IMG/VR virus record: IMGVR_UViG_3300037722_000495
Location: 1 to 63,918 of that record
Length of the DNA stretch: 63,918 nt
Strand: one strand, 5' to 3'
Origin: a virus
Lineage: Duplodnaviria; Caudoviricetes
Positions 188-62,425 of the stretch are shown piece by piece. Made by a program: the position numbers and the translations under genes. A model generated the notes under the pieces. That model ran no database searches. It was given only the letters and a program-made list of their open reading frames with translations, and was not told where the DNA came from. How positions within the stretch are numbered: position 1 is the stretch's first letter; each line of letters opens with the position of its first letter.

Positions 188-589
188 ATGTTGCATAAAA
201 ATGCTATAAAGAGTCAAATAAGACTAATGGAATTACAATATGATCCAATAGAAAAATTAGTGTTATTAGAAAAGAAGCTACAAGAAGAGCTGTCCATTCA
301 TGAAAAAATAAGGGACTCTTCTAAGGTATTTTTGGATCCTAAAGGAAAACCAAGAAATTATAATCCTCAAGCTCATCAAATGGTATTAGATAAACTTCTT
401 AGTGTATCAGATAAACTTATGCGTTATATGTATGCTAGGGTGCCTGAAACATTGGAACTTAAAGAAGAATCTCCAAGACGATTAATTGTACAATTAACTG
501 GTGATAATGAAGAATATGTGTTAGAAGAAAATACCAATGAGTTTAATGGTGTAATAGATTGTGTAGATGAGAGTGTAACGAATGATTAA
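188..589 (+). CDS. Putative terminase small subunit
   Basis: 133 aa, helical, overlaps the start of the large terminase; positional call. Confidence 0.5.
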   Translation: MLHKNAIKSQIRLMELQYDPIEKLVLLEKKLQEELSIHEKIRDSSKVFLDPKGKPRNYNPQAHQMVLDKLLSVSDKLMRYMYARVPETLELKEESPRRLIVQLTGDNEEYVLEENTNEFNGVIDCVDESVTND

Positions 590-1925
590 ACTCCATAAAG
601 GTCAATCAAAGGTCTATAAGGATATCTTTATTGATCAAGTTTGTAGATTTGCTGTTGTTAGATGTTCTAGAGGTTGGGGAAAATCTTATTGTGGTGCAAC
701 TATTGCTGGTACTGCTATATTTGAACTACTTGAATTGCACCCTTATGTACCTCATAAAGTTGTCTATATAATTGCACCTACTTACGATCAAGTAATTGAT
801 ATTTATTATCCATTAATTAATTACGATTTAGGATTCGGTGATCTTGCTTTAAAGTCCTCCAAAGATACTGGTAGATTTATATTTCCTAATAATGTAGAAC
901 TTAGACTGCTCTCTTACGAATCCATTGAAAGGATGCGAGGTAAGGGAGCTTATTTTGTATTGTGGGATGAATTGTGTTCCTGCAAGAAAGGCATCAAACC
1001 AAGAGATGCATGGCAGGGTGTAATTCAACCTGCTATTATAACAAGGTGGTCTGCTGCTAGAGCTATATCCTTTGGAGCTAAATCCCCTGGGAGAGCAGCT
1101 TTTATTGGTACACCTAAAGGGTACAATTTTTTCAAAGAATTATCAGATTATGAAGAAGAAAATCCTTTGTGGAAATCTTATCATTTTGACTACAGATCAT
1201 CACCATTTTTAGATATTGATGAGATTGAATCAATTAAACATAATATTGATCCCATAGAGTTTGCTTCTGAATATATGGCAACTTTTGAGAATAGTGGTAA
1301 TAATGTCTTTTATTGTTTTGATAGAAAAATACATGTAGATAGAGAGTTGGAGTATTTCAGAGCACCTAAAGATGGTGAACCAGGAGAAGATGTTCATGTG
1401 GGAATTGACTTTAACGTTGGTTTGCAATGTTCTTCTATGAGTGCTTTAAGAGGAGGTCAATTACATGTCCTTGATGAAGTTAAAGGACATCCTGATACTG
1501 AAACATTAGCTATTTCTTTAGCGACTAAATTTAAAGGACATAAAATCTTTGCTTATCCTGATCCCACAGGACGTAGTAGGAAAACATCAGCTCCTGTTGG
1601 TGTAACTGATTTTACAATTCTAAAAGATCATGGTATTACTGTTCTTGCAAGATCACATTCTCCTGCTATCGTGGATAGTGTAGCTTCTGTTAATAGAATG
1701 TTGAAGAATGCAGCTGGAGATGTGAATGTAAGAATACATCCAAGATGTCGTGGTTTATTGGAGTCATTAGAACGAACAAAATGGGTAGACAATAATTCAG
1801 ATACTGCTACTATTGATAAATCAGAAGGTATAGAACATTTTGGTGATGGATTTAGATACAAAACTGAGTTTATGTTTCCGATTAAGAAACATTCTATTGT
1901 CACTAGCAGAGGCTTTGGTTTCTAA
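582..1925 (+). CDS. terL: Terminase large subunit
   Basis: Walker A-like RGWGKS, Walker B VLWDE, GTPKG coupling motif, C-terminal nuclease GIDFN and EHFGDG. Confidence 0.93.
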   Translation: MIKLHKGQSKVYKDIFIDQVCRFAVVRCSRGWGKSYCGATIAGTAIFELLELHPYVPHKVVYIIAPTYDQVIDIYYPLINYDLGFGDLALKSSKDTGRFIFPNNVELRLLSYESIERMRGKGAYFVLWDELCSCKKGIKPRDAWQGVIQPAIITRWSAARAISFGAKSPGRAAFIGTPKGYNFFKELSDYEEENPLWKSYHFDYRSSPFLDIDEIESIKHNIDPIEFASEYMATFENSGNNVFYCFDRKIHVDRELEYFRAPKDGEPGEDVHVGIDFNVGLQCSSMSALRGGQLHVLDEVKGHPDTETLAISLATKFKGHKIFAYPDPTGRSRKTSAPVGVTDFTILKDHGITVLARSHSPAIVDSVASVNRMLKNAAGDVNVRIHPRCRGLLESLERTKWVDNNSDTATIDKSEGIEHFGDGFRYKTEFMFPIKKHSIVTSRGFGF

Positions 1926-10212: not shown

Positions 10213-11760
10213 ATGGCTGTAGTGAATGCTGTTCAGGCAAACAAAAAGAATGTAGGTGATCCTAATGCAGCATACGAGTCATTACGTGATTTGTGGATTA
10301 AATGTAGAGCTGTTTGTAGTGGAGAAAGATTTGTAAAAGATCTTGATTCTATAGTGGACACTTACACTTTCTCAAATCTATTGATTCCTTTTTCTACTTC
10401 AATGACTCAAATGCAATACAATTTCTATAAAGCTGAAGCAGAATTACCTGGGATTACTGCACAATTCTCCAAAATGCTTGTAGGAGGTCTACTTAGGAAA
10501 CAACCTTCTTTGGAACTCCCTGAAGAGGTTCCTGAAGAATGTTATAACTGGATTATGAATGAATTTGGTGTAGATGATTGTAGCCTCTCAGCATTCCTAG
10601 ATGAAGCCTTATGGGAAGAGGTTCAGACAAATCGTTCCTGGATCTTTGTAGATTATCCTGAAGTACCTAATGTAAATGAATTGACTAAACAAGAATTACT
10701 GGAGTACTGTCCATATCCGATACTAGTTAAAGCAGAATCTATTATAAATTGGAAAGTTTCTAATAATATTAAAGGTAAACCTCTTCTGGAAAGAGTAATT
10801 GTTAAAGGTACAGAAGAAGATTATTCTGATGAGTTTCATCCAGAATTCTTCGAAGTTATTTATGTACATGAATTAGATAAATCTGGATATTACCAAATCA
10901 GAGTATATAAATCTAATAATCCAATGAGCATTGTTCCAACAATCTCAGGAAAAAGGATTGAGACTAATCGATCTAATACTTTTGTTTTAGATAGAACCAT
11001 AAATAATATTAAAAATAATGGCAAAAGACTCGAGTATATTCCTGCATGGCCTTTAAATGGAAATATTGAGCCTTCTGAACCAATTTTAATGCCGATAATT
11101 GATAAAGAAATTTCATTATATAATAAATTGAGCAGACGAAATCATTTACTCTATGGAGCTGCGACATACACTCCTATTATTTGTTCAGATATGACAGATG
11201 GTGATTTTAATAAAATTGTTAATGGTGGTTTGGGTTCTTGGATTCATTTGGAAGCTAATGGTAAAGCTGACATTTTAAAGACACCTACAGAAGCTCTAAA
11301 GGATATGGAAAGTACCATTGCGAATACTATTGAAGAGATGAGTAAACTAGGTATCAGAATGTTAACTCCAGAAACAGCTCAATCAGGTGTTGCATTGGAA
11401 ATTCGTAATGCTGCTCAGACTGCTCAATTAGGTACTTTCAATAGAAAAATTAGTAATACACTTAAACAAGTTATTGCTTGTATGATTAATTGGCGTTATG
11501 GACTTAATCTCTCTTATAATGATGTTAAGTTTTCATTATCTGAAGACTTTAATCCTGTACCTTTAGGTGCGGATTGGTTAAGATTGGTAACTGAATGGTA
11601 CGATCTGGGTCTTATTCCTAGATCCATATGGTTGATCATTCTTAAGGCTAATGATATTATTCCTCCTGATTATGATGATGAGGATGCTCAAAAAGAAATT
11701 AATAATGATGAGTTTATCATAAATAAAAATAAAAAATTGGAAGAAGATATGGAGAAATAA
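10213..11760 (+). CDS. Portal protein (DUF4055-like)
   Basis: 515 aa, upstream of MuF/scaffold/capsid; IFVDYP, ESIINW, QSGVALEIR patterns. Confidence 0.8.
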   Translation: MAVVNAVQANKKNVGDPNAAYESLRDLWIKCRAVCSGERFVKDLDSIVDTYTFSNLLIPFSTSMTQMQYNFYKAEAELPGITAQFSKMLVGGLLRKQPSLELPEEVPEECYNWIMNEFGVDDCSLSAFLDEALWEEVQTNRSWIFVDYPEVPNVNELTKQELLEYCPYPILVKAESIINWKVSNNIKGKPLLERVIVKGTEEDYSDEFHPEFFEVIYVHELDKSGYYQIRVYKSNNPMSIVPTISGKRIETNRSNTFVLDRTINNIKNNGKRLEYIPAWPLNGNIEPSEPILMPIIDKEISLYNKLSRRNHLLYGAATYTPIICSDMTDGDFNKIVNGGLGSWIHLEANGKADILKTPTEALKDMESTIANTIEEMSKLGIRMLTPETAQSGVALEIRNAAQTAQLGTFNRKISNTLKQVIACMINWRYGLNLSYNDVKFSLSEDFNPVPLGADWLRLVTEWYDLGLIPRSIWLIILKANDIIPPDYDDEDAQKEINNDEFIINKNKKLEEDMEK

Positions 11761-12045
11761 ATGACAATCTATGATTTCCAATATGAAAAACTAATTAGAT
11801 CAGATCATGTAACAGGCTCTGCAATATGTTTACAATGTGGACATACTTTTCAATCTATAGCTCCAGCCGGAGTACATGCTTTTGAGTGTCCATCCTGTCA
11901 CACTAATAAAGCTGTATTTCAAAATGGAATAGAACCACCTATTTTTTATGTTTGTGAATGTGGTTGCAACTTGTTTGTTTTAAGTGAATATGGTTCTATT
12001 TGTTGGAAATGTGGACAAGATGTTGATCCTTATTCAGAGGAATAA
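11761..12045 (+). CDS. Zinc-ribbon protein
   Basis: CLQC, CPSC, CECGC and CWKC motifs. Confidence 0.6.
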   Translation: MTIYDFQYEKLIRSDHVTGSAICLQCGHTFQSIAPAGVHAFECPSCHTNKAVFQNGIEPPIFYVCECGCNLFVLSEYGSICWKCGQDVDPYSEE

Positions 12046-12047
12046 TT

Positions 12048-15000
12048 ATGGCTTTAAATGCGAATACACAAATTCAAGATAAAGTTGTTGACAGAGCAGC
12101 TATGGTTAGACTTTATGAAAAGCGTGTAAACGATAAAGTCGAATTAACCTTAGATGGGCATAAAGTACGTGTTGATAAACTAATAAGAGAAGCAAAACTT
12201 TCTGATAAAGGTCTATTGAGACTGAGAGAAGCTATTGATCAAGATATTAAAAGTACTTTTAAGGAGATTTATAATACCAATAAAAGATCACTTTTAGATT
12301 TATTTACAGATCAAGCTTCTTTCGCTTATCAAAATATAGAAACCACTATGGGAAAAATCTGGCGTACTCAGAGACCTACTCGTAGAGTTGCTGAAGAAGT
12401 GGTTCTAGAAAGACCTTTATACAAAGAACATACCTTAGCCGCTGGATGGGCAGGTATTGGAGAAAACGAAAGAAAACGTTTAGAGCATGTAATAAGAAAA
12501 GGAATCGCTGATGGTAAATCAGTAGAAGATATAGCTCTTGCTGTACGTAAAGGTAATATACATAATATTACTAGAGCACAAAGCAAAGCTCTCGTTGTAA
12601 CCTCAATTACTAGTGTTCATGCTCAAGCAGATCATGCAGTTTATAAAGCTAATGAAAAAGCTCTTCATGGTTGGCAATACGTTGCAAAATTAGATTCTCA
12701 AACTACTAGATTATGTGCTTTTAGAGATGGTACAATATATCCTATCAGTGATACTGAACATCTACCACCTGCACATTTTAATTGCAGATCAGTGACGGTA
12801 CCAGTTTTTAAATCTTGGTCTGACATAGCCAAACTGGAGAATGTTGCTTATGTTCGTAAAAGAAATATTCAAAAGTTATCTAAGAAGGATTTGGATTTCT
12901 ATGATGGTCTGACTCCTATGCAAGAGTCTTATCATTCTTGGCTCCAAAGACAAACCCCGGAGATTCAATTACGTCATTTAGGTGATTATCAGAAACTTGA
13001 ATTGTTCAGAAAAGGACAACTCAATGCTAAAGCTTTTTTGAATGAAGATGGTAGAAGTTTGGGCATAAGAGAATTAAGAAAACAATCAGATGAGCTTTTC
13101 ACACTTCCTAATGACACCAGACGTTTTGCTATTGCTAAAGAAAAACTAGATTCAATGCATTTAGGAGCTTCTACACCAGATGATTTCATTAATGACACCG
13201 TTCTTACTAATACTCTAAGAGATTATTATCTACTACAAGCTAGTGAACTAGATGGAACCCTTTCATTAACTAATTATAGAGGAGCCTTGATAGGAACCAA
13301 GAAAGCTGTCAAAAGACGAGTATTAATTTCTCCTCCACGAGAAGACCAAATGATTTTTAATCCTTTGACTGGTAGATATCAGGATGTTCGTCTCTATCAA
13401 CCTAATCAAGCTGTTTTGAGTAATGGTTTAAGACTTGTAGAAGAAAGTGATAAGTTATTAGATCGTGATAAGAAGTTCATTAATGACTTTATTAATTCAT
13501 TAGACCAAAGAATGGGTGCAAATGAAAGAGCAGTAATAGCTGATAATCTAAGGATAATTTTTGGTAGATACAGAGACAATAAAGAAGTATGGTCTAATTT
13601 TAAAGCTGTAGTCCAGGGACAAATCAAATATGATGTAATGAATATCTCTGATGCAATAGAAACACAAATAAGAAAAGATTCAAATGTATTTAAAAGACTA
13701 TCTCAAGATAGTTACTTGGATACCATATTAGGACCAACGTCTTTAGATGAATTGCATGATAATTTTATTGATAATATTATTGCTAAAAATAAGTGGGAAG
13801 ACACAATGGCTCCTAAGCTCGCAAGAGAATTGAGAGAAGTTTTTGATCCTCATATTCCATTGAAAGTATCTTCCAGATTATCTGAAGATGAAATAAAACA
13901 ATTTTATCTTAAGTTGGCCCATCGATTAAGTTTAGCTGATTTACCTGATTTTGACCAATTTGCTGTAACTATAGGTAGAGATCTTTATAATCTAGCTAAC
14001 TTAACTGGCAAAAGATTGGAATGGTATAATTTAGGAAAAAGCATTCTCCAGTCAAAGAATGCATCCCGCTTGTATGAATTAGAAACATTCGGAATACAAA
14101 AAAGAAGAATGAAATCCAGATTAAGTGGTTCTTATTTTGGACCTTATTATGATACTCTAGGTTTTAATATTCGTATTGTTGATCCTAGAATCCAAGAGTA
14201 TGCTAAATTAACCAGGAAAGTGGAATTGGGTTTACGTGTAAGTGTAACATCAAAGAAGAATCGATTGCTTTTTAAAGAAGGTTATAAAACCTATTTTATT
14301 GATAAAGGTCCATTAGGTACTATAGATACTAGGATTCCTATTACTAGTACATCATCTTTCTCAGATTTTCCCGAAGAATTTCTTGATAAAGACATGATAG
14401 ATGCTCTTAATTGGGCTGCTAAAGCTGAATATCGTGTTGATCCTGATTTTCATGATTTTATAAATAAACTATTGTATTTCGAGGATGATAAAGGCCGAGC
14501 AAGACATTTTAATGAACTTAATGAGTATAGAAAGTATATAGCGGCTCGTGGTGATGCTTATGAACGGTTTAAAGCCATGCAATGGTTAAGAAAAGATAAT
14601 CGTTCGTTCTCTAATCATCCATTCATAGATCATCGAGCACGTATCTATGATAGAGGCCTTATCGGTCCTCAGAGTGGTGAAACCTTCAGACCATTTCTCA
14701 ATACTGCTGAGGAAAAGATTTTAGGTGTCAATGGTTATGAGAATCTTCAAGATCAAATTGGAGCATTCTTAGGTGGTCTCAGTGATGAATTAGAAGGTAA
14801 GTATAATTCTTTGACCTTTACTGGTAGACAGAAGATTGCAGAGAAATGGCGCAATGATCTAGTGACTATTGGTAATCATATGTTGAGAAAGAAACCTAAT
14901 GATATCAGAGCTATCCTGGAACATCCTTTAGTGCATCAGATTGAAGGTGAAGAATTAGGTAAGTTCTTAAGATTTGCCATAGAACAAGCTAAGATTGATA

Positions 15001-18000
15001 ATTATCTAGAATCTTTTGATAAAATAAAAAAGTACTCCAAACAGAATCTCCTTAATTTAGAAAAATATAAAACTGCATTAGCTTTAGAACAAGATGCCAG
15101 TTCTTCAGGAGCACAGATTATTGCGCTAACAACTCGTAATAAGCAATTAGCTGAACTTTCTAATGTAATTCCAACGAATCAAAAGAAGCGTCTCTATGAT
15201 GAGATTGCTGCTGCAACTGCGAGAGATCCTCGATTTGTTAAACTCAATGAGAAATTAGGATTGACAGAGAAAGATTTACGCAAGGCAGCGAAGGCGCAAA
15301 ACATGGTAGAATGTTGCCATGTATAAACTCCGTGAATTCAGGGAAACCCATTTTTGAATGGGCAATCCTGAGCCAAGCTTTAGGAGGAATCCTTTAGAAG
15401 GTGCAACGACTAAGACAAACGGTCCAGAACGGATTATGAAGTCTGTAGAGATTATGCCGATCTCGAAGCGCGGAGACGTAATATTCCATAGTGGAGGTTT
15501 ACGTAAAAGATAGTCTAACCGTATAGTAATATACGACAAAAGGAGTAAAAATGAATTATTATAAACAATATTTTAATTTGATAGAAAAACATGGACAACA
15601 ATCAAAACCAATAGAAGGTTATTTTGAGAGACATCATATCATTCCACGCTGCTTGGGTGGTAAAGATGAGTACGATAATTTGGTCTATTTAAATGCTAGA
15701 TGTCATTTACTTGCTCATTGGTTACTGATGAAAGCTTTACCATCTGAGAAAGGACTTAAAATCGCTTACACAACAATGAGTTCTAGAGATGGTATTAAAT
15801 TATCTCCAATAATGTATCAAATAGCGAAAGATGCTATTAGTGGTGATAATTCAATGCTTGCACGTGCTGTAGTCACACCTTTAGGTGAATTTCCAACAGT
15901 AGCAGCTGCTGCTAAAGCACATAATGTAGTCAAAGCTATTATTTCTAGAAAAGCAGGAAGTAAAAGCATATTACACCAAGGTTATTATTGGAAAGATTTT
16001 ATTGTAAAAGGTGATGTAGCTGATGGTAGAAATGCACATCATTTAAGAAAAGGTGTTTGTACACCTTTCGGAAACTTTGAATCTACACGTGAAGCTGGAA
16101 GAGTGCTTGGCATTAATCACTCTACCATCACCAAAAGAATAAGACGTGGTGATAAAGGCTACTCCTATATAAATTGAACATTCTACGGAGCAGGAGAGAG
16201 AACAGGTATTTTGAATGTTGAAGGAAAGCTTGCTAAGATATTAGGAAAAGATACTGAAACATTAGTCGTTAAAGCTTCTGACAGAGATACTGTATTAAAT
16301 GAGATATCAGCTAGGATTGCAAGAGTTGAGAAATTCGATCCAGAAGCAGCTTTGGAATTACGCGCTTTAAGAAATGATGTGAAAGATGTTTTTAATAAAG
16401 GCTTAGATCCAGGTGATGATATCTTGGAAGCTTTATGGTTCCTCGATCCTAAAACGAGAGACCTGGTTGAAGTAATGTCAAAGAATTATACTAAAGTAAT
16501 CACTCCAATGGATTTTAAAATAATTGCCAATATAATGAGTGAACATCTTTCTGAACAAGTTCCTATTCTTAAAGATTTTACTCGTTTCTTCGGAAGATTA
16601 GCTGAGGAGTTTTTGATTCATTCGAAACCTTCTGAAAGTGCTATGGATTGGAAAAAGATTGCTTCCATAGCAATTACAGGGACAAGAAAGAGTGGCTATC
16701 GTTTACCACCCAGGATTAGTGAGTTCTTCGGATTAAATCCTAATGAGTCTTTAAAAGAGAAAACATTAAAACGTTTATCTTTCTGGAAACCTGATAGTCC
16801 ATTAGCTGATATTCTTTTTGGAAATAAACAATCCAAATACAGACGTACTGGAACTATTATTGGAGGAAAATCCATAGTACTGCCAAGTATAAAAATAAAA
16901 CTAGAAAAATTCAAGCATCTTAGAATGGAATTCTTTAAGAGTAAAGATATTATAAAAGAAATGCAAATATTTTACACAAACAAATTACCTAAGAGATGGA
17001 CAAATATTCCTTGGGTAAATTTTGATGGTAAAGTAGTAGAGCAGAATTTTACTCAAACATTTGAAGAAAGAATCTTTTATAAAGATAAATTTGGTAATTG
17101 GACCACTAATATTCTTCAAGTTCCTCAGAAAACTGAAGCGACTTGGTGGGAACAAGTGATTAATAAATCTGGTAAGATTAATGATATCGCAGATTCTACT
17201 AAGGCTCGTACTGCATATGCAGTTAACGGTATTGATTTGCCGTTATAAAACTCCGTGAATTCAGGGAAACTCTCTAGTAGACAATCCTGAGCCAAGCTTG
17301 AGTGGGAACACTCTTGAAGGTGCAACGACTATTATGTAGGGCAGAAGTCTGCTCGAAGCGCGGAGATAGTTAGCATAACTATAAGAGATAGTCTGATCTG
17401 TATGGTGACATACAGCAGTTAATACAAGGAGATAACTAATGAAGTTAGAACGCTTAAAAGCCCTTTTCTACTATAAAGATGGAAATCTGTATAATCGTGT
17501 TTCTAGAGGTTCAGTTAAAAAAGATTCACTTTCAGGATATATTGCAGAAGATGGCTACAGACGTATTAGAGTTGATGGTAAATATTATTATATCCATAGA
17601 CTTATATGGTTTTTAATTACTTCGAAAATAGTTCCAGATGATCTCTTTATTGATCATATTGATGGAAATCGACTTAATAATGATATAAATAATTTACGTT
17701 TAGCAACATCTTTGGAAAATCAATATAATAAATTTAGACAAAGAAATGGTTCTAGTGTTTATAAAGGTGTATGGTATGATTCGAAAAAATCATGTTGGAA
17801 AGCAGCAATACGCTTAAAAGATACTAGAAAATATATTGGACAATTTGAAAGTGAATTAGAGGCTGCTATTGCCTATGATAAAATAGCAATAGAATTGCAC
17901 GGAAGATTTGCCAAACTCAATGTATTAACGGGTCAGGAGTAACGAACCTGATTGAACATATTGAATCATTCTAATGATGCTGTAATTGTAAAAAGATTTC

Positions 18001-18353
18001 ATCTATGGGGTATGAAGAATGGTGTTTCTACTTCTACTATCCATGACGCCTTCTTTGCTAATGCTGCTGATATGTTGGAAGCAAGAAGAGCTTTACGACA
18101 AAATTACGCAAAAGCATTAGATAGAAATGTTATAAAAATGACTTTGGATGAAATGTTAAAAAGAGGATTACCTAAAGAAATATATGATAGATATCTTGAA
18201 GAAGCAATTGAAAAAGGTTTAATACCTACTCCTGGTAAATCTAGAATAAATGGTAAACTAATGAAGGATACCGATATATTGTTAAGAGAAGATATTCTTC
18301 AGGAGATTCCAGAAGGATTCTCAACAGATTATGGTTGGTATGGTGTAGGTTAA
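12048..18353 (+). CDS. MuF/SPP1-gp7 minor head protein fused to T7-type RNA polymerase; join(12048..15307,16177..17230,17964..18353), about 1567 aa
   Basis: N-terminal MuF motifs WQYVAKLDSQT..LC and PPAHFNCRS. RNAP motifs DHRARIY, motif A QDASSSGAQ, spliced motif B RKAAKAQNMVTFYG, spliced VNGNHSNDA, motif C IHDAF. Exons join in frame (4704 nt). Confidence 0.9.
15308..16176 (+). mobile_element. Group I intron 1 (869 nt) in MuF-RNAP motif B
   Basis: P1 ACATGGT/GCCATGT with U-G at splice site; P10 AGAATGTT pairs with exon AACATTCT; core GAATTCAGGGAAAC, AATCCTGAGC, GTGCAACGACT, AAGATAGTC; ends in G. Confidence 0.93.
15551..16177 (+). CDS. Intron-encoded HNH homing endonuclease
   Basis: HHIIPRCLGG..D..NLV.L...H..AH motif; two C-terminal TP.G.F....A repeats (NUMOD-like); AAGGAG RBS. 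Confidence 0.88.
   Translation: MNYYKQYFNLIEKHGQQSKPIEGYFERHHIIPRCLGGKDEYDNLVYLNARCHLLAHWLLMKALPSEKGLKIAYTTMSSRDGIKLSPIMYQIAKDAISGDNSMLARAVVTPLGEFPTVAAAAKAHNVVKAIISRKAGSKSILHQGYYWKDFIVKGDVADGRNAHHLRKGVCTPFGNFESTREAGRVLGINHSTITKRIRRGDKGYSYIN
17231..17963 (+). mobile_element. Group I intron 2 (733 nt) in MuF-RNAP
   Basis: P1 TAACGGT/GCCGTTA with U-G; P10 TGATT/AATCA; same core motifs; ends in G; splicing restores VNG-NHSND. Confidence 0.93.
17439..17942 (+). CDS. Intron-encoded HNH-AP2 homing endonuclease
   Basis: HRLIW..IDHIDGNRLNN..NLR HNH; YKGV..W.A.I..IGQF..E.EAA.AYD AP2 domain. Confidence 0.9.
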   Translation: MKLERLKALFYYKDGNLYNRVSRGSVKKDSLSGYIAEDGYRRIRVDGKYYYIHRLIWFLITSKIVPDDLFIDHIDGNRLNNDINNLRLATSLENQYNKFRQRNGSSVYKGVWYDSKKSCWKAAIRLKDTRKYIGQFESELEAAIAYDKIAIELHGRFAKLNVLTGQE

Positions 18354-18361
18354 AAACAAAC

Positions 18362-18375
18362 CGTTAAATTAACCC
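18362..18375 (+). promoter_or_regulatory. Motif A copy 1 (CGTTAAATTAACCC), candidate phage promoter
   Basis: One of 4 identical intergenic copies; upstream of scaffold and capsid. Confidence 0.65.
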
Positions 18376-18468: not shown

Positions 18469-19119
18469 ATGGCTGATGAAAACAATAACAATGAAAGTCA
18501 GAATAAATCTGATCAACCTAATATTGAAGAGCTTGTACAACAACAACTAGAAGAAAAGCTCAAAGATATTAAGAGTAAGCTGGATAAAGCTTATGAAGCT
18601 CGTGATGCTGCAATGCAAAAAGCAGTAGAATTGGAGCAAAAACAACGTGAAGAGAACATTAAAAGGTTAGAGGCTGAAGGAAAAGAAAAAGAAGCACTTG
18701 AGGCTAAACTGGAAGACATTAATAAAAGGCTTTTGGAAGAGCAAGCAAAAAGCAAGACTTATGAACAACGAAATGTTGAACTTTCGAGAGACATTGCCGT
18801 TAAAACAGTTCTTGCTACTATGCCTTTTAGAAATGAAAAAGCAATTGCGATGGCTTTCAGTGAAATTACCGGTCAATTGATTCAGAATGCTAATGGAGTG
18901 TGGGTCCATAAGTCTGGGTCTTCTATTGCTGATTTTGTAAAAACTTTTTCTGAAGATGAATCTAACTCTTTCTTGTTCAAAGCTGCTGAAAATAATGGTG
19001 CTGGTTTGAAACCTAATTCTGGTTCTTCCTCTAATGATAAAAACACTTCTCTTTTCTCGAAATCTCAAGAGGAAGTTCTTAAATTAGCCCGTGAGGGTAA
19101 ACTAGCAAAGCGAAAATAA
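18469..19119 (+). CDS. Capsid scaffolding protein
   Basis: Coiled-coil, charged, Gly/Ser-rich tail, directly upstream of capsid gene. Confidence 0.75.
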   Translation: MADENNNNESQNKSDQPNIEELVQQQLEEKLKDIKSKLDKAYEARDAAMQKAVELEQKQREENIKRLEAEGKEKEALEAKLEDINKRLLEEQAKSKTYEQRNVELSRDIAVKTVLATMPFRNEKAIAMAFSEITGQLIQNANGVWVHKSGSSIADFVKTFSEDESNSFLFKAAENNGAGLKPNSGSSSNDKNTSLFSKSQEEVLKLAREGKLAKRK

Positions 19120-19144: not shown

Positions 19145-20329
19145 ATGGATATCGATCTCGCTGGAGCGGACAATTTTGTTCTTCAATCCGCTATTTCTGC
19201 ATACTCGGATGAGGCTTACACTAATGCTAAGAAGCTGTCTTCTACTGGCATTGTAGGCAGCAATCCTGATATTGACACTAAAACTGAAACTTTTATTGGT
19301 CAGGTTCGTTGGTTCAAAACGATGAATCCTACTGTAAACGTTGCTTCTCTTACCGATCCTACCGCAGGTACCAAATCTAATTATGCTTCGGACTTCCTGA
19401 CCTACGTAAAGACTGTCCGTACCTATGGTGGTGAAAAAGTAAATATGCAGCAAGTTGTTACCCAGCAGGATGGTCTTGCTAAAATTGGTCGTGACTTTGC
19501 TGAACATCATGCTCAAGATGAACACGATGCTATCCTTTCGGTTATTAAAGGTGTAGCTATTTCGGAACTGATTAACGGTACTGGTGCTGGTTCTGGTCAG
19601 GCCGGTCTTGGTGGTCAAACTTTCGAGAATGATCCTACTGATAAGCGTTACGGTTTCTACGTAGACCTCGGTGGGGCAATGCCTGTAATTGCTGCTACTG
19701 ACGTTATTTCTGGTGCAGCTCGTGCGGAAGGTTTTGTACAAGCTTTTGGTATGGCATATAAAGACTACGAGCCTGCTTATGCATATCTTGTAGTTTCCCC
19801 GGCAGTAATGGCTTCTCTGCGTTCTGCTAACCTGGTTGATTCCACTACTGTTACTGATGGTAATGTTGAATTTAACACTATCTTTAATGGTAAATTCCGT
19901 TTGATTATGACTCGTGCTAATCAGAGCCTGTTGACTGCTGAATTGACAAAGCTTAAGACCGGTGCTGGCGTGGACCTGCATGTTGATAGCACCAAAACCA
20001 GCTTCATTGTTCTTCCTGGTGCTATTGCTTTGGAGCAGCTTGAAGTGCCTGTTCCTGTTGAGATTACCAGAGATGGTAACTCTTACAAGGGTGGTGGTTC
20101 TACCTCCATTTGGCATCGTTGGGGCTATGTTGCTGCTCCTGCAGGGTACAATTGGGCTGGTTCTGCTGAGAAGTTTCCCTCGAATGCTGAATATCAATAT
20201 GCTGTTGAAGCTGGTACCCCTACTGCTGTTACTGCTCTTACTGATGCAATTGCCAACACTACTGGTACTTGGGTTCGTAAATCTGCTTCTGCTCTTTCTC
20301 TGGGAATCCTTCCGATCTTCCATAAATAA
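19145..20329 (+). CDS. Major capsid protein
   Basis: 394 aa, strong high-expression codon bias, lies between scaffold and head-tail adaptor. Confidence 0.8.
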   Translation: MDIDLAGADNFVLQSAISAYSDEAYTNAKKLSSTGIVGSNPDIDTKTETFIGQVRWFKTMNPTVNVASLTDPTAGTKSNYASDFLTYVKTVRTYGGEKVNMQQVVTQQDGLAKIGRDFAEHHAQDEHDAILSVIKGVAISELINGTGAGSGQAGLGGQTFENDPTDKRYGFYVDLGGAMPVIAATDVISGAARAEGFVQAFGMAYKDYEPAYAYLVVSPAVMASLRSANLVDSTTVTDGNVEFNTIFNGKFRLIMTRANQSLLTAELTKLKTGAGVDLHVDSTKTSFIVLPGAIALEQLEVPVPVEITRDGNSYKGGGSTSIWHRWGYVAAPAGYNWAGSAEKFPSNAEYQYAVEAGTPTAVTALTDAIANTTGTWVRKSASALSLGILPIFHK

Positions 20330-42627: not shown

Positions 42628-42796
42628 CCCTCAAATTTCGACAACTTAGTAGCCAGACTGGACCGGAGTGCCTCGACCTGCAGCCGGTCTAAGTCCCATA
42701 CTGGAAATTTCCCTGGCTCGACAGAGTGGAAAATTAGAGAGAGTTATTAAATGAAATTTTAGGGTCATTGTTATCTCAGGAAAACTCCGAATTTCC

Positions 42797-42810
42797 CGTT
42801 AAATTAACCC
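42797..42810 (+). promoter_or_regulatory. Motif A copy 2
   Basis: CGTTAAATTAACCC; 42791-42810 is identical to 62370-62389. Confidence 0.65.
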
Positions 42811-42938: not shown

Positions 42939-42956
42939 GCCCTCTTAATTGAGGGC
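42939..42956. other. Hairpin GCCCTC-TTAATT-GAGGGC
   Basis: Inverted repeat; near-identical copy at 63251-63270. Confidence 0.6.
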
Positions 42957-42965
42957 TTTAAAATG

Positions 42966-42993
42966 CGGAAAATGAGGTATCTTATATGAAAGA
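42966..42993 (+). promoter_or_regulatory. Motif B copy 1 (CGGAAAATRARGTATCTTATATGAA), candidate phage promoter
   Basis: One of 3 near-identical intergenic copies; upstream of early small genes. Confidence 0.7.
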
Positions 42994-44972: not shown

Positions 44973-45000
44973 CGGAAAATAAAGTATCTTATATGAAAGA
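44973..45000 (+). promoter_or_regulatory. Motif B copy 2
   Basis: CGGAAAATAAAGTATCTTATATGAAAGA, intergenic, upstream of the genes leading to RNAP2. Confidence 0.7.
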
Positions 45001-45809: not shown

Positions 45810-48503
45810 ATGAGAGATATTCTAATCAACGATCTCAAGAAAAGACTGGCAGATGAAATAACAAATAACATGCCATTAAAGTATCTCAGAAATCATTCCA
45901 TTGAAGAATGTTTCAACTTAACTGTACCAGTAATGTATCTGTATACAAAGAAACCTAAGAGGCAACAAGATGTGATCATTTTGATGTCTGAATTAATCTG
46001 TGCAATAGGACATAAAATAAGAGATACATTTAAACTTAAGAAAGACACTTCTTTAGCTGCAAAAACTGGTGCATTTTTTCTTTATTCTTTTGAAAGAGCA
46101 GAAATCGTAAGAACGTTTTTAGGTAAAGGAAAAAATGATCACGGAACAATGCTGGTTGATCTTTTAGAACCGGATACTCTCTCAGAGTTATGGACTAACT
46201 TACCAGAAGAACACAAGGATAAACTACCTTCAGAAACACCTTTCGAACCTTGGATGACTACTAAACATCCAACTGGTAAAAACATGGTGAAAACTCGTTA
46301 CAATCCTGTTTTAAAAACAATCAAATTAGACACCCACAAAATTCTATTTGATAATTTAAACAGATCACAACAAGTTGGTTGGTTAATTAACAAAGAGATT
46401 TATAGTATATCAAGGTGGGCTTTGAGAAATAAAGTTGAAGCCTTTTCAGATATTTGGGAACAACACAATCCCGAAGCTAAAGCAACAAAGTTAAGAGAAG
46501 CGAAATCTATAATTGAAATTGCTACATTGTTTTTAGATAAAACTTTCTATCATCTTTATAGCTACGATTTCAGAGGTAGAAAATATGTTTCTACAGCCTA
46601 TCTAAATGAACAAGGGGGTGATCTGTCAAGAGGATTACTTTTGAGAAAAGATAAGAAATCAATAGGAAAACAAGGTTTCTTTTGGTTGATGGTCTCAATT
46701 GCAACAAATTGGGGTGGTGACTCCGGTAGAGAAGATGAATTGAAAACTGACAAGATCCCATTAGAAGACAGATGTCTTTGGTCGGTAGATAATGAAGAAA
46801 TCTTATTAGCCTATGCAGAGCAACCTAAGATTAATCAGGGGTGGATGTCAGCTGATAAACCTTGGCAATTTTTGGCTGCTTGTATTGAACTAAAGAATCT
46901 AAGAGTATGGCAATGTAATTTCACAAGAGAAAGAATTGATACTCCTTCTGGAACATTTTATACTAGTCCAGATTTCAATAATTTTGAATATGAGTCTCAT
47001 CTTGAATGTTATGTGGATGGTAGCAACAACGGTAGTCAACATTTATCTGCACTCACAAGAGATCATGTGACTGCACCCTTAGTTAATCTTGTAAAAAGTA
47101 AATTTCCTGGAGATCTTTATAAGTTTATAGCAGATAATGTATGGGATAAGATACAAGCCATCTTAGATGATTTTGATGATTCGATTATCATGAAATGTGA
47201 AATTTTCATTGATAACATGATAGAGTTTAAGAAACGAATTATCGCAGCTGAACCAAATAGTGATATACGGAAGGAAGCTGTAGAAAGTATCAAAAAGTTA
47301 AAAAATGATAATAAAGGTATCAGTGAACAGGCATGTGCAGTGTTCTGGTGTAGGATAAAGGACGCTAAACATAAGAGAAAAATTGTTAAAAGAAACATTA
47401 TGACACTTCCGTTGATTGGCGGAAGTAAAATCGGGTGAACTCAGGAGATCTCCATTCGCCGTGGACAATCCTGAGCCAAGCTTGAGTGGGAACACTCTTG
47501 AAGGTGCAACGACTAGAACATACCATCCAGGACGGATGATGAAGTTCATAGAGTCAAGTGACTCGAAGCGCCCGACTTATAAGCGACCAAATTGCTTATT
47601 TGATGATATAGTCTGGTCTGTATAGTAATATACAGCTGTAAGTGATTTTGAACAGAAAGGAGGATATAAAGGAAAGAAATTATATTTAGGTCTTTTCGAT
47701 ACTGCTGAGGAGGCCAATAAACGTGTAAAAGAAGAAACGAAGAGATTGTACGGCGAATTTGCAAACTCTGATTAACAAAAATCACTTACGGGTAAAGTCT
47801 AATGAACTTTGCTGAACATTACGATGGCGGAACTCCTTATGGCTTAGGACAACAGCAAATAGATGATGCAAAGAAACATGGGATAGAGCTGCTCTATTAC
47901 ATGGAACATAAATGGGGAGCATACCTAGGGAGACTTATATTTGAGACATGTAAAAGTGCTCTCCAAAGACCAATGCAATTGCTATCTATATTTGAACAAG
48001 CTGGAAAGAAAGCAGAAGAGGAAAATAGATGTTTATCTTGGACAGTTCCAATAACTAACTTTCCCGTAGTACAATATTATACTGAAGGAATTGTTCAAAA
48101 AACTTGGATACAATATGGTCCTCCTTATGGTCCTAAACTAAGTACTGGTTATTACCGTAATACCTTACAATTACGTTTATGCTTCATTGAGAAAACAATT
48201 CTATCAAAAAGAAAGCAATCTCAGGGAGCCAGTCCTAATGCTATTCACAGTTTAGATGCAGCGCATTTAGCATTGACAATCGATAGGTGTCCTTTTCCTG
48301 TGACTACTATTCATGATTCTTTTGGATCACTCCTTGCTGATATGCCAGATTTATACAGAATTGTCAGAGAGACTTTTGTAGAGTTGTATCTGGAAAATCC
48401 TCTGACAAAATTAATGGAAGATATAGGAGGAAACATAGATGAAATAGAAATGGGTGAACTAGATATCACAGAAGTCTTGGAATCCGAGTATTGTTTTTCT
48501 TAA
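45810..48503 (+). CDS. T7-type single-subunit RNA polymerase (RNAP2); join(45810..47412,47824..48503), about 760 aa
   Basis: DFRGRKY, motif A DGSNNGSQH, spliced motif B RKIVKRNIMTLPYGG, SPNAIHSLDA, motif C IHDSF, terminal YCFS. Confidence 0.93.
47413..47823 (+). mobile_element. Group I intron 3 (411 nt) in RNAP2 motif B
   Basis: P1 ACTTCCGT/GCGGAAGT with U-G; core AATCCTGAGC, GTGCAACGACT, GATATAGTC; P3 TCGGG/CCCGA; ends in G; T+AT restores the motif B Tyr. Confidence 0.92.
47662..47775 (+). pseudogene. Remnant of HNH-AP2 homing endonuclease (AP2 tail only)
   Basis: Reads GYKGKKLYLGLFDTAEEANKRVKEETKRLYGEFANSD*, similar to the intron 2 endonuclease C-terminus; no in-frame start. Confidence 0.75.
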
Positions 48504-49316: not shown

Positions 49317-49330
49317 AAGAAAAGTAAACT

Positions 49331-49344
49331 CGTTAAATTAACCC
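49331..49344 (+). promoter_or_regulatory. Motif A copy 3
   Basis: CGTTAAATTAACCC(AC) directly upstream of the SSB/replication operon. Confidence 0.65.
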
Positions 49345-54160: not shown

Positions 54161-54363
54161 TGTTCTATCGTTGTGATGCTTGTAAAAGGCCTTCTGCTAC
54201 TGAAGATTGGGACAAAGCTACTAGGAGAGTTGATCCAGGTCTACAGAAAAGTAATTGGACAATAGATAGAGCATTTAAAGATCATTTGGTTGCATGTCCA
54301 TTATGTGATTTTATCGATACTTTTGAGTTTGTCAAGAAAGTTGATATAGCTTATGTTGAATAA
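54160..54363 (+). CDS. Small zinc-finger protein
   Basis: CDAC and CPLC; AGGAG RBS. Confidence 0.5.
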   Translation: MFYRCDACKRPSATEDWDKATRRVDPGLQKSNWTIDRAFKDHLVACPLCDFIDTFEFVKKVDIAYVE

Positions 54364-54775
54364 TGGTCATTGGAAATTTGATAAACAAATGGGTGATGGT
54401 GTAGGATTTATATACATAATTCGGGATAAAGATCTCAGACGATTTTATCTGGGAAAGAAATCATTTAAAGTAGGTAGAGGTCAACATAAAGGAAAAGACT
54501 CGGGTTGGCGAAAGTATAAGACTTCCTCACCAATAATGAAGACTCTTTTTGAGGGTAGACCACTTTCTGATTTTGAATTTATTTGTATTGAAGAATATAA
54601 AACAAAAGGGACCTTGAGTTATGCTGAAACTTGGACTCTATGTTTAGTGGAAGCACCTACTACGAGTACCTTTTATAATAAAAGAATCGAAGCAGTCTCT
54701 TGGAATGTTAAAGAACCTATTTCAGACAAACATAAGGAACGTCTTAGACAGGTTATTAATTGGGAGAAAGTATAA
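54353..54775 (+). CDS. GIY-YIG (Seg-like) nuclease
   Basis: GFIY.I.......YLGKK, W..Y.TSS, E, FYN motifs. Confidence 0.7.
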   Translation: MLNNGHWKFDKQMGDGVGFIYIIRDKDLRRFYLGKKSFKVGRGQHKGKDSGWRKYKTSSPIMKTLFEGRPLSDFEFICIEEYKTKGTLSYAETWTLCLVEAPTTSTFYNKRIEAVSWNVKEPISDKHKERLRQVINWEKV

Positions 54776-54955: not shown

Positions 54956-56605
54956 GTGATTGTGGGAAAGATCGCGAAGAGTAATTTACCTTGTGTTGAT
55001 CCAGACTGTGGTTCCTCGGATGCACTACAGGTATATGAGGATGGAGATTCTTTTTGTTTTTCATGTCAGAAATTTTTCACAAAAGAACAAACACAAAATA
55101 GAGTAGTAAAGGAGTCTCCTCCTAAGCAAAACAAAGGTTATGAGAAAGAACTTTCTGTAGAACAAATAAGAGAACTTCCTGTAAGAGGATTTAAAGAAAG
55201 AGATATAACAAAACAAATTTCGGAATTCTATGATGTAAGAATCTCTTATGGAACAGATGGTAATATAGATGCACACTATTATCCATATAATAATTGTGAA
55301 TCTTATAAGAAAAGAAAATTGCCAAAAGAATTTTATTGGATAAACAAATCAGATGATCTCTTCGGAAGACATAAGTTTCAAGGGGGAGGCAAACGATTAA
55401 TTATCTGTGAAGGTGAGATTGATACACTTTCAGTAGCACAAGCCGTATTTGACCATTATAATACAATTTATCCAGTAGTAGGAATATCTTCTTCTGCTAT
55501 GACTAAATCAATTCTCAAACATAGAGAATGGATAAGATCATTCGGTGAAGTTATTATTTGTTTCGATGAAGATGATGCAGGAGAAAAGGCAAGAAAAGAA
55601 GCAATAAAAATAGTCGGTTACGATAAAGTCAAAATAACGAAATTGCCAACAAATGATGTAAATGAATTACTTCTAAAAGAAGGTTCAAAAGCTGTAATGA
55701 GACAGCTCTTTGACGCTGTACGATATATACCTTCTGGAATAATCGGTAAAGATTTATTATGGCAATCCCTGATAGATTATAATAACAAACCCTCTATACC
55801 TTTTCCAGAATGTCTTGAAGGAGTTAATCATAAAACAAAGGGTAGAAGATCAGGTGAAATTACACTATTTATATCAGGAACTGGCTCTGGTAAGACCACT
55901 CTGTTAAGAGAAATCATAATCGATATTATTCAGAATAAAGAAGAAAAACTAGGAATTATTTCCTTGGAAGAATCTCCTGCGGAGACAGCTCGAAAATTAT
56001 CTGGTATGGCTTTGAACAGGAATCCCGCCAATGAAGAAATTCCAATAGAAGAATTAAAAGCTGGTTTTGATCAAATATTTGGAAATGATCGTATTTTAAT
56101 ATTAGACCATCAAGGTTCAATAAATGACAATTCAATTACAGATCAATTAGAATATATGTGTTTAATGGGTTGTACTACCATTCTAATTGATCATATCACT
56201 ATTCTAGTTTCAGAAGGAGTTGAAAACTTGACTGGAAATGAAGCCCAAGATAAAATGATGAATGAGCTTCTCAGATTGGTTAAGAGACATCCTGTATGGA
56301 TCGGTTTAGTTTCACATTTAAGAAAAACACCTAGTGGTGGTAAATCTTTTGAGGAAGGTAGACTTCCTACTTTAGATGATATCAGAGGTTCTGGTTCTAT
56401 TAAACAAATCTCATTTGATATCATCGCTTTTGCAAGAAATCTTTCAGCTGCAGATGATGTTGAAAGAAATATAATGTTAATGAGTGTTTTAAAGTGTAGA
56501 TTTACGGGTTTGACAGGTCAAGTACCAGGGGCCTACTATGTATACGAAACAGGAAGATTGAAACCACTAAATTCTTCCGTGGTTGAATTCACTTCATTGG
56601 ACTAA
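54956..56605 (+). CDS. Primase-helicase (T7 gp4-like)
   Basis: Zinc finger C..CGSSDA..CFSC; TOPRIM EGEID and FDED; GTGSGKT, DHI, HLRK, DIRGSGSIKQ. Confidence 0.93.
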   Translation: MIVGKIAKSNLPCVDPDCGSSDALQVYEDGDSFCFSCQKFFTKEQTQNRVVKESPPKQNKGYEKELSVEQIRELPVRGFKERDITKQISEFYDVRISYGTDGNIDAHYYPYNNCESYKKRKLPKEFYWINKSDDLFGRHKFQGGGKRLIICEGEIDTLSVAQAVFDHYNTIYPVVGISSSAMTKSILKHREWIRSFGEVIICFDEDDAGEKARKEAIKIVGYDKVKITKLPTNDVNELLLKEGSKAVMRQLFDAVRYIPSGIIGKDLLWQSLIDYNNKPSIPFPECLEGVNHKTKGRRSGEITLFISGTGSGKTTLLREIIIDIIQNKEEKLGIISLEESPAETARKLSGMALNRNPANEEIPIEELKAGFDQIFGNDRILILDHQGSINDNSITDQLEYMCLMGCTTILIDHITILVSEGVENLTGNEAQDKMMNELLRLVKRHPVWIGLVSHLRKTPSGGKSFEEGRLPTLDDIRGSGSIKQISFDIIAFARNLSAADDVERNIMLMSVLKCRFTGLTGQVPGAYYVYETGRLKPLNSSVVEFTSLD

Positions 56606-62027: not shown

Positions 62028-62375
62028 AGTCTGTAAACTTGATTTTTGTAAGGGTGGTAAATATGTAATACTTCACAATAACCTTTTCCGTAAAAAATAT
62101 GTATGTCATAGTTGTATAATCGATAATAAAGATGAATCAGTAAAAAAATTCAATCAATTACGACTCTTAAATTTCGAATCTGACGATCCCCGGAAGGGTC
62201 TTGTCTGCCCCCCGTCCTGCAGAGAAAAACAGCAGAGGTACTGCGGTAGGCTACCAGCTTACAGTTTTTCGGAAGGATCGCGCTTCAAGTTTCGATAATA
62301 GAAGTGACAGTTATAAGGTATTGAAATTAATGGAGAAAATTCGAGGACCGCCCTGAAGTGATTTTCCCGATTTCC

Positions 62376-62389
62376 CGTTAAATTAACCC
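62376..62389 (+). promoter_or_regulatory. Motif A copy 4
   Basis: CGTTAAATTAACCC, 11 bp upstream of motif B copy 3. Confidence 0.65.
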
Positions 62390-62400
62390 TAAAAAATCTT

Positions 62401-62425
62401 CGGAAAATAAAGTATCTTATATGAA
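62401..62425 (+). promoter_or_regulatory. Motif B copy 3
   Basis: CGGAAAATAAAGTATCTTATATGAA upstream of ORF 62475. Confidence 0.7.

Follow-up and report, generated by a model that had tools for sequence, protein, structure and literature searches.

A MuF head protein fused to a T7-type RNA polymerase in a siphophage: a candidate for delivery of the enzyme with the virion

To our knowledge, virion-borne RNA polymerases (RNAPs) are known from few phage lineages only, namely N4-like phages, jumbo phages of the phiKZ/AR9 type, crAss-like phages and P23-45, each with its own loading device. The RNAP of phage T7 is a free early product of 883 amino acids (aa) and is not a component of the virion. 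N4 gp50 is a single-subunit RNAP of the T7 superfamily that is encoded among late genes, borne in the capsid and ejected to serve the early genes, and a second, smaller T7-like enzyme, N4 RNAPII, acts afterwards. According to passages of PMC5512222, gp50 has about 3500 aa, the RNAP being central and the encapsidation region, which includes a metallopeptidase domain, C-terminal, and virion RNAPs of this kind are reported only in N4-like podophages. In the Thermus siphophage P23-45, the virion RNAP gp96 is joined to the tape measure protein; the genes it transcribes are pre-early and include that of the non-virion RNAP gp64 (passages of PMC10770324). Here we describe a gene of the IMG/VR virus record IMGVR_UViG_3300037722_000495 in which a MuF head protein is continuous with a complete T7-type RNAP, hereafter the MuF-RNAP gene. 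The window analysed is the whole record, 63,918 bp long and 92% complete by CheckV. We read the virus as a siphophage, and MuF-RNAP as a single late structural gene.

MuF proteins are themselves known as carriers. In SPP1, gp6 directs a few copies of the MuF protein gp7 into the procapsid interior, virions without gp7 are about 25% as infectious, gp7 is a DNA-binding protein that aids the initiation of infection, and MuF-toxin fusions are thought to travel by the same route (passages of PMC6316719). The protein described here has the same N-terminal family as SPP1 gp7 and Mu gpF, and its gene likewise stands next after that of the portal in the head region. It resembles the MuF-toxin fusions, in which the head takes up a C-terminal cargo for delivery (passages of PMC6316719 and PMC5512222), and the corresponding role here is a prediction from sequence. 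The cargoes described are toxins, RNases, ADP-ribosyltransferases, RelA/SpoT proteins and phosphoribosyltransferases (passages of PMC5512222), whereas the present one is an RNAP of 1000 aa. No polymerase cargo on MuF appears in those passages of PMC5512222, and the main text of PMC5576092 nowhere uses the word 'polymerase'.

With N4 gp50 the new protein shares a T7-superfamily RNAP, a gene among the late genes and, as predicted, delivery with the virion; the genome also encodes a second, smaller T7-like enzyme, RNAP2. A preliminary description of this DNA, made from its letters alone, had proposed that the architecture differs from that of the N4 enzyme, and this proved to be so. The protein has 1567 aa, an N-terminal MuF carrier and, encoded in the same genome, a long tape measure protein; Pfam finds Phage_Mu_F and RNA_pol only, and the gp50 architecture was not found. 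Judged from the model of P0002, an intronless homologue of 1550 aa, the polymerase appears to stand nearer to T7 and mitochondrial RNAPs (Z 20-22) than to the N4 RNAPs (Z 11-14). P23-45 is likewise a siphophage with an RNAP fused to a structural protein and a second RNAP, but its enzymes are two-barrel polymerases related to cellular RNAPs and its carrier is the tape measure protein, whereas here a T7-class pair and a head protein carrier are found. T7 and mitochondrial RNAPs are the best structural matches over nearly the whole enzyme, and the T/DxxGR element and motifs A, B and C are common to both; unlike T7 RNAP, the polymerase is fused behind 565 residues and encoded in the head module. 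True homologues of the fusion occur in phages DSS3_VP1 and DSS3_PM1, which have deoxyuridine-containing DNA (dU-DNA) and a homologue of RNAP2, and in EBPR siphovirus 1.

The MuF-RNAP gene consists of three exons separated by two group I introns (Table 1). Its junctions were placed by tblastn of the intronless DSS3_VP1 and P0002 proteins to the window, followed by reading of the sequence. The spliced coding sequence of 4704 nucleotides (nt) has its sole stop at the end and encodes 1567 aa (180.5 kDa, pI 9.3). P0002 reads ...AQNMVTFYGAG... and ...AVNGNHSND... at the two junction sites; in global alignment 1102 of the 1567 residues are identical to it (~70%), with no gap at either junction, and the spliced protein aligns equally gap-free over the junctions with intronless homologues of 1540-1560 aa. 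The reading of positions 12048-18353 as one twice-spliced gene, put forward in the preliminary description, thus agrees with the intronless homologues, and the search for such homologues that it had called for yielded intronless fusions of 1540-1560 aa and a large conserved family. Its expectation that automatic annotation would fragment the gene was likewise borne out: the protein collection entry for the window, P0001, is the 1092-aa first fragment only, with PF04233 alone.

Both introns match Rfam model RF00028 over model positions 1-253, well within the gathering score of 50, are preceded by T and end in G. By inspection, P1 pairs CATGGT with GCCATG in intron 1 and TAACGGT with GCCGTTA in intron 2, so that the T at the exon end pairs with G in helices of 6-7 bp, and P10 pairs GAATGTT with AACATTC (7 bp) and TGATT with AATCA (5 bp), respectively. 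The covariance score, the U-G pair in P1, the terminal G and the restored reading frame of the intronless allele are all those of group I introns, and the MuF-RNAP mRNA would lose both by self-splicing in vivo. Each intron contains a homing endonuclease open reading frame (ORF), and the TGA stop of the one in intron 1 spans the 3' splice site.

Interruption of this gene is common among its relatives. The motif B site is interrupted in 11 of the 38 loci that span it, and other relatives are interrupted in motif A, ahead of NHSND, in motif C and elsewhere. Rfam was run on eight of the ten interrupted loci other than that of the window, all but L030 and L032, and six of the eight contain 11 group I introns in total, with up to four per gene; the scan gave no group I intron match in the other two, L001 and L029. 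Homing introns within catalytic motifs are the pattern expected of an essential, conserved enzyme. The heaviest load was seen in the IMG/VR relative L036, with four group I introns (71.9-89.4 bits) inside the MuF-RNAP gene at 12626-16190, which is unusual for a single phage gene. We also observed that 43 nt of the intron 2 core (17255-17297) are 97.7% identical to part of the gene for DNA polymerase I in Escherichia phages Bas93 and Bas94; the two are presumably related group I introns.

The first 350 residues form the MuF module. They match Pfam Phage_Mu_F (PF04233) at aa 145-250 (43.9 bits, cut-off 29.6), the NCBIfam family TIGR01641 phageSPP1_gp7 (55 bits, cut-off 39.65) and the head morphogenesis family phrog_241 (E 3e-59, aa 1-347), and the MuF motifs LDSQT and PPAHFNCRS lie at aa 215 and 240. 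The assignment in the preliminary description, which placed MuF motifs in the first 260 or so residues and the gene in the MuF slot between portal and scaffold, is therefore upheld by three family models. In a tblastn search of 50,697 phage records, 979 were matched, and all except four of these cover just aa ~1-351. One of them, Pseudomonas phage JG054, has a stand-alone MuF head protein of 399 aa whose aa 1-351 align with aa 1-351 of the fusion, and its gene occupies the equivalent slot in the order terL-portal-MuF-scaffold-capsid. As in JG054 and DSS3_VP1, the gene of the window follows the portal gene and precedes the scaffold and major capsid genes. Because aa 1-351 match stand-alone MuF proteins, the first 350 residues represent a whole MuF protein and the remainder a C-terminal cargo, and the JG054 alignment puts the polymerase in the position of that cargo. 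The sole toxin-family match was a sub-threshold one to Tox-REase-7 in P0002 (18.1 bits, cut-off 25); by the fold of the P0002 model, the C-terminal part is an RNAP and not a polymorphic toxin. The helical middle region (aa ~351-565) has no PHROG match.

The remaining 1000 residues carry the T7-family motifs in frame: DHRARIY (T/DxxGR) at aa 861, DASSSG of motif A at 1016, motif B RKAAKAQNMVTFYG at ~1076-1090 with the NMV-TFYGAG junction at 1085, NHSND at 1438 with the VNG-NHSND junction at 1436, and IHDAFF of motif C at 1464. Motifs B and C are 448 aa apart, presumably about 200 residues more than the T7 spacing. The polymerase part matches the RNA polymerase family phrog_414 (E 6e-23), the exon 3 region corresponds to positions 306-371 of the Pfam RNA_pol model, and the intronless homologues (~70% identical) reach 38-48 bits with that model, for which the cut-off is 22. 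Profile alignment to T7 RNAP sets DHRARIY on DWRGRVY, NHSND on H784 and IHDAFF on D812 (T7 residues 769-843). The top match of the profile, the archaeal regulator 1uly (E 0.0012), is unrelated and was taken as chance.

Structure was assessed on an AlphaFold model of the homologue P0002 (aa 351-1550), not of the window's own protein. Foldseek returned 73 matches with this model at E ≤ 0.001; those listed, with E values from 5e-14 to ~1e-11, are all single-subunit RNAPs and include POLRMT, T7 RNAP and Rpo41. VIA-align superposed it on T7 RNAP with Z 22.0 and a root-mean-square deviation of 4.3 Å over 502 residues, spanning T7 residues 34-882 and model residues 214-1198, that is, aa ~565 onward. 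Z was 21.2 for yeast Rpo41 and 20.0 for human POLRMT, and 13.8 for the N4 mini-vRNAP (virion RNAP; 3c46), 13.8 for N4 RNAPII and 11.2 for N4 gp50 (9pnt). The model thus predicts the right-hand polymerase fold with a T7-like N-terminal domain. The motif A Asp, the Lys, Tyr and Gly of motif B and both C-terminal Asp residues are invariant in 22 full-length representatives of the family, and by these sequence features the module is apparently a complete, active T7-class RNAP. Domain profiles and fold therefore agree with what the preliminary description had claimed as a whole, a MuF module followed by a complete T7-class RNAP in one spliced gene, and all of the catalytic motifs it had listed for the spliced protein were located.

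The fusion is widespread. A search with exon 1 gave 427 matches at E ≤ 0.001 among 8000 candidates scored. The best 120 of these 427, all at least 63% identical, comprise 83 with both PF04233 and PF00940 and 37 with PF04233 only; the latter mostly have 1065-1152 aa or 1412-1419 aa, lengths that correspond to truncation at one or other of the introns. When 1.84 billion representatives were searched with a profile of the polymerase part, 204 clusters (50% identity) matched with E ≤ 0.001, 98 of them with E ≤ 1e-30. The 22 full-length representatives mentioned above were picked from this list and are 21-53% identical to the first; Phage_Mu_F was detected in 22/22 and RNA_pol in 18/22, and the MuF motifs do not vary among them. 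Three two-domain clusters, with 109, 146 and 184 members, are present in the ESM Atlas.

Named or cultured phages with the fusion are few; the tblastn search of phage records found only DSS3_VP1, DSS3_PM1 and EBPR siphovirus 1, in which the protein is labelled 'minor head protein-like protein' or 'head protein'. The DSS3_VP1 gene (DSS3VP1_00028, 1463 aa) is intronless, lies between the portal and coat genes and is 28-30% identical over its full length. EBPR siphovirus 1 gp47+gp49 are 58% identical and have an HNH gene at the same motif B site. DSS3_VP1 and DSS3_PM1, of the Naomviridae (also written Naomiviridae), have dU-DNA and were cultured on Ruegeria pomeroyi. Genes of the dCMP-deaminase or YfbR type (PF00383, PF12917) were not found in the 92% complete window or among the 39 ORFs scanned with Pfam, which do not include every small ORF. 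Among 185,579 species genomes only 2 loci were found, both in one metagenome-assembled genome of a gammaproteobacterium; there is thus no sign of prophages or lysogeny in that collection, and the hint at a host is weak. A different cargo is seen in Pelagibacter phage Kolga, whose gp59 (L079, 3501-5402) is a 633-aa MuF protein of which the first ~343 aa match and the C-terminal ~290 aa form an unlike extension.

A second RNAP gene, RNAP2, which the preliminary description had passed over, lies in the early/replication region and encodes a canonical T7-like RNAP. It is interrupted by a group I intron in motif B (P1 CTTCCGT/GCGGAAG, T before the intron, G at its end), and its junction was set by comparison with the intronless relative L072. 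Splicing joins what would otherwise be ORFs of 542 aa (45810-47438) and 233 aa (47802-48503) into a protein of 760 aa, which also matches phrog_2166, 'N4-like RNA polymerase' (E 1.6e-29), and is only 23% identical to MuF-RNAP over 206 residues. RNAP2 is present in all 6 relatives examined, comprising 4/4 near-complete related genomes and DSS3_VP1 and DSS3_PM1, where it is annotated as RNA polymerase. Together, RNAP2 and MuF-RNAP give the genome a two-polymerase layout like that of N4 or P23-45. The intron cores of the two genes are related: over 55 nt, the cores of introns 3 (47461-47515) and 2 (17277-17331) share 98% identity, with 82% for intron 1 (15358-15412). This suggests that introns moved between the two polymerase genes, whose interruptions in homologous motif B are about 7 nt apart.

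Two classes of strand-specific motif recur between genes. Class II (CCGTTAAATTAACCC) is present in 4 copies at ≤1 mismatch in the window against 0.007 expected, the first of them 8 nt past the MuF-RNAP stop. The core TTAAATTAACCC stands 12-15 nt past the MuF-RNAP stop in the six loci checked (L003, L013, L017, L028, L030 and L034), at least one match to it occurs in 12 of 40 loci, and three of four related genomes have 3-5 copies of class II with 0 in the reversed control. It is a candidate promoter for a phage RNAP, or a regulatory site. Class I, (A/G)GTATCTTATATGAA with the 27-nt consensus CGGAAAATAAAGTATCTTATATGAAAGA, has 3 copies at ≤1 mismatch in the window against 0.014 expected, and its shape is one that we take to resemble T7/SP6 promoters; it is a candidate early promoter. 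Its copies, inspected by eye for hairpin promoters of the N4 type, show no consistent stem. In the relatives, only two kinds of match are suggestive, the copies with 0-1 mismatch and the variant CCATCTTATATGAA, which recurs; every one of them is on the coding strand. A 17-mer of class I gave 29 single matches in IMG/VR, none of them in relatives as defined by tblastn with all ORFs of the window, and these were put down to chance. Between the terminase gene and position 18361 neither class has a copy at 0-1 mismatch, and two matches with 3 mismatches lie at 53 and 17068. Sigma-70-like sites are not enriched at 42.4-49.5 kb (19, against 28.5 +/- 4.2 in shuffles). Two conserved motif classes of this kind would fit a transcription programme driven by phage polymerases. 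A hairpin read by eye at 42941-42960 (GCCCTC-TTAATT-GAGGGC followed by TTT; not listed by the scan) looks like a terminator of the tail operon, beside the start of the small-ORF region.

The portal, zinc-ribbon and MuF-RNAP genes are tightly packed, with intergenic gaps of 0 and 2 nt. Lying within the portal operon, the MuF-RNAP gene should be expressed late, together with the head proteins, and late synthesis combined with fusion to MuF most simply makes the product a virion enzyme for the next infection. It is thus probable that the phage brings a polymerase of its own to the host within its virion. We envisage that the spliced mRNA gives a 180-kDa protein composed of the MuF module, the helical linker region and the complete single-subunit RNAP; that, on the model of SPP1 gp7, the MuF module attaches to the portal; and that a few copies of the fusion enter the procapsid interior and remain with the packaged DNA. 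In the next infection the fusion would leave through the tail along with the DNA, and its polymerase module would initiate at phage-specific promoters without host RNAP. Its targets would include the operon of RNAP2, and RNAP2 would then take over middle and late transcription. For packaging and ejection, the argument comes from the late position in the portal operon and the known binding of gp7 to the portal. As a whole, we regard a packaged and ejected MuF-RNAP that begins host-independent transcription, followed by RNAP2, as the best explanation, with a probability of roughly 0.6.

Several observations weigh against this explanation. A protein of 180 kDa would have to pass a very long tail, and the founding paper on DSS3_VP1 and DSS3_PM1 reports no virion proteomics in its main text. 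The window's own RNAP fragments fall under the Pfam RNA_pol (PF00940) cut-off (17.2 and 19.1 against 22 bits), phmmer of P0002 against PDB sequences gave 0 matches at E ≤ 1, and a 12-sequence profile reaches T7 RNAP at only E 0.012. Model confidence is middling for the RNAP (pLDDT 61.9, pTM 0.56) and poor for the 350-aa MuF module (pLDDT 56.6, pTM 0.34). Class II contains an 11-nt palindrome, GTTAAATTAAC, that would suit an operator equally well, and the class I 14-mer at ≤2 mismatches occurs 2-4 times per genome in four relatives, where ~2 are expected by chance. The assignment of either class to one polymerase is guesswork. The two classes form tandem pairs, one at 42.8-43.0 kb and one at 62.4 kb; if the genome is circularly permuted, the latter pair may in addition lie at the head of the terminase and structural genes.

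The fusion might be packaged and ejected and yet serve chiefly for something other than early mRNA, as a motor for genome entry or as the enzyme that primes the first round of replication. Transcription drives entry of T7 DNA, and T7-class RNAPs prime T7 and mitochondrial DNA replication. The structural evidence is the same as for early transcription, the 3191-aa tape measure protein implies a very long tail through which DNA entry may need help, and gp7 binds DNA and supports the start of infection (passages of PMC6316719). The sequence does not separate these roles from early transcription, nor are they mutually exclusive with it; for priming, the phage has a primase-helicase of its own, hence an RNAP would not be needed. 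That such a task is the main one seems to us unlikely.

Equally improbable, in our estimate, is a fusion that acts in the producing cell only, as a late-gene polymerase or tethered to the procapsid, with host RNAP serving the early genes and RNAP2 following as in T7. In T7-like phages the host RNAP does transcribe the early genes, including the RNAP gene, and some sigma-70-like sites are present in the early region, although fewer than in shuffles. The Pelagibacter phages Kolga and Aegir have an RNAP2 homologue and a MuF protein without polymerase, from which it follows that phages of the RNAP2 type can dispense with a MuF-RNAP. However, the gene lies inside the portal-to-capsid operon, and a polymerase needed for that operon would be made too late. 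Moreover, MuF is kept in every one of the diverse representatives, and passages of PMC6316719 give it no known role besides entry into the head via the portal. A catalytically dead module, serving as structural or DNA-binding cargo of the head, could account for the strong divergence from solved RNAPs and the large insertions between motifs B and C, but is very improbable given that no catalytic residue of motifs A, B or C varies even at 21% identity and that in many relatives homing introns target exactly the catalytic motifs, as is typical of essential active sites.

We found no description of a MuF-RNAP fusion in full-text searches of the main texts of papers. The terms 'RNA polymerase', 'RNAP' and 'MuF' are all absent from the main text of the paper that founded the family of DSS3_VP1, and likewise from a 2025 paper on abundant marine Naomiviridae. 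As the domain pair is present in precomputed Pfam annotations, the architecture is known to databases and seemingly has not been interpreted. We class the virion-borne polymerase and the delivery of MuF cargo as known elements, and their combination as new. We lean towards the view that a large undescribed group of aquatic siphophages, including the Naomviridae with dU-DNA and the present phage, runs a host-independent cascade of two polymerases that starts from a MuF-RNAP packaged at the portal and ejected. If so, this would be a third independently evolved route of an RNAP into the virion, after the C-terminal domain of N4 and the tape measure protein of P23-45, and the first case of a polymerase, instead of a toxin, being delivered by the general MuF cargo system. 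The widespread MuF route could then carry a whole transcription machine, and a large environmental group of siphophages would join the viruses that are independent of host RNAP. It may also account for gene expression in dU-DNA phages, and as RNAPs the enzymes would be new, compact and promoter-specific. In current annotation, the gene is everywhere mislabelled 'head morphogenesis protein', and its intron-bearing versions are broken into two to five fragments.

Table 1. Positions of the genes, gene parts and motifs discussed, in window coordinates.
Feature	Position	Strand	Remarks
Large terminase gene	582-1925	+	
Subtilase gene, 673 aa	5287-7308	+	Peptidase_S8 E 5.7e-24; between terminase and portal genes
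Portal gene	10213-11760	+	Pfam DUF4055 E 7.6e-9; phrog_145 E 3e-58
Zinc-ribbon ORF, 94 aa, four Cys	11761-12045	+	Between portal and MuF-RNAP genes
MuF-RNAP gene, three exons	12048-18353	+	
MuF-RNAP exon 1	12048-15307	+	MuF, middle region, RNAP N-terminal domain, DHRARIY, motif A, first half of motif B; ends ...AQNMV after 2nd base of Val codon
MuF / SPP1-gp7 head-morphogenesis module, aa 1-350	12048-13097	+	Exon 1, part a
Helical middle region, aa ~351-565	13098-13742	+	Exon 1, part b; outside T7-aligned stretch of model
RNAP N-terminal part, DHRARIY (T/DxxGR), motif A DASSSG, first half of motif B	13743-15307	+	Exon 1, part c
Intron 1, group I, 869 nt, within polymerase motif B	15308-16176	+	RF00028 match 15298-15536, 75.6 bits, E 3e-18
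Intron 1 homing endonuclease ORF, 208 aa	15551-16177	+	Pfam HNH E 8.7e-8, NUMOD1 E 4.7e-5
MuF-RNAP exon 2	16177-17230	+	Rest of motif B (TFYGAG) and enlarged fingers; last residues ...AYAVNG
Intron 2, group I, 733 nt, immediately ahead of NHSND	17231-17963	+	RF00028 match 17152-17415, 72 bits, E 3.7e-17
Intron 2 homing endonuclease ORF, 167 aa	17439-17942	+	Pfam HNH_3 E 7e-15, AP2 E 1.9e-7
MuF-RNAP exon 3	17964-18353	+	NHSND, motif C IHDAFF, C-terminus ...DYGWYGVG, stop
Class II motif CCGTTAAATTAACCC	18361-18375	+	8 nt past MuF-RNAP stop, ahead of scaffold/capsid genes
Scaffolding protein gene	18469-19119	+	phrog_206 E 3.8e-10
Major head protein gene	19145-20329	+	phrog_247 E 1e-21
Tape measure protein gene, 3191 aa	23463-33038	+	TMP_3 domain aa 111-298
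Tail-tip protein gene, 2347 aa	34778-41821	+	Next after tape measure
Class II motif, further copies	42796-42810, 49330-49344, 62375-62389		
Class I motif (A/G)GTATCTTATATGAA, 27-nt consensus CGGAAAATAAAGTATCTTATATGAAAGA	42975-42990	+	Just past hairpin, ahead of small ORFs
Class I motif, further copies	44982-44997, 62410-62425		First of these ahead of small ORFs and RNAP2
Small ORFs	43-45.7 kb	+	
RNAP2 gene	45810-48503	+	
RNAP2 exon 1	45810-47412	+	Ends ...KRNIMTLP in motif B; Pfam RNA_pol E 6e-31; phrog_414 E 4e-57
Intron 3, group I, 411 nt, without endonuclease ORF, in RNAP2 motif B	47413-47823	+	RF00028 75.5 bits
RNAP2 exon 2	47824-48503	+	YGGTPYGLG..., HSLDAAH, IHDSFG; Pfam RNA_pol E 3e-24
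Primase-helicase gene	54956-56605	+	

The recognisable genes of the window all lie on the + strand. A portal homologue stands upstream of the MuF-RNAP gene in 27 of the 38 IMG/VR loci. The zinc-ribbon ORF between the two genes gave weak matches to Zn_ribbon_8, HypA and DZR, every one under its cut-off; the close relatives L003 and L014 have no ORF in this place, and there only 10-19 nt separate the stop of the portal gene from the MuF start. The interval from the portal to the capsid genes showed no classical prohead protease. If each residue of a tape measure protein accounts for about 1.5 Å, as we assume, 3191 aa imply a tail of roughly 0.45-0.5 µm. A 123-nt 'direct terminal repeat' of contig G002 was taken as an assembly overlap, since the contig begins inside a 1402-aa gene, and is uninformative on genome ends and on the end that enters the cell first. 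The replication region encodes a family A DNA polymerase, a 5'-3' exonuclease, a primase-helicase, a class II ribonucleotide reductase and a DNA ligase, together with a tRNA-Leu gene. Directly upstream of the primase-helicase gene, at 54353-54775, lies a free-standing SegE-like homing endonuclease of the GIY-YIG type (E 2e-13), which brings the homing endonucleases of this phage to three, two HNH and one GIY-YIG.

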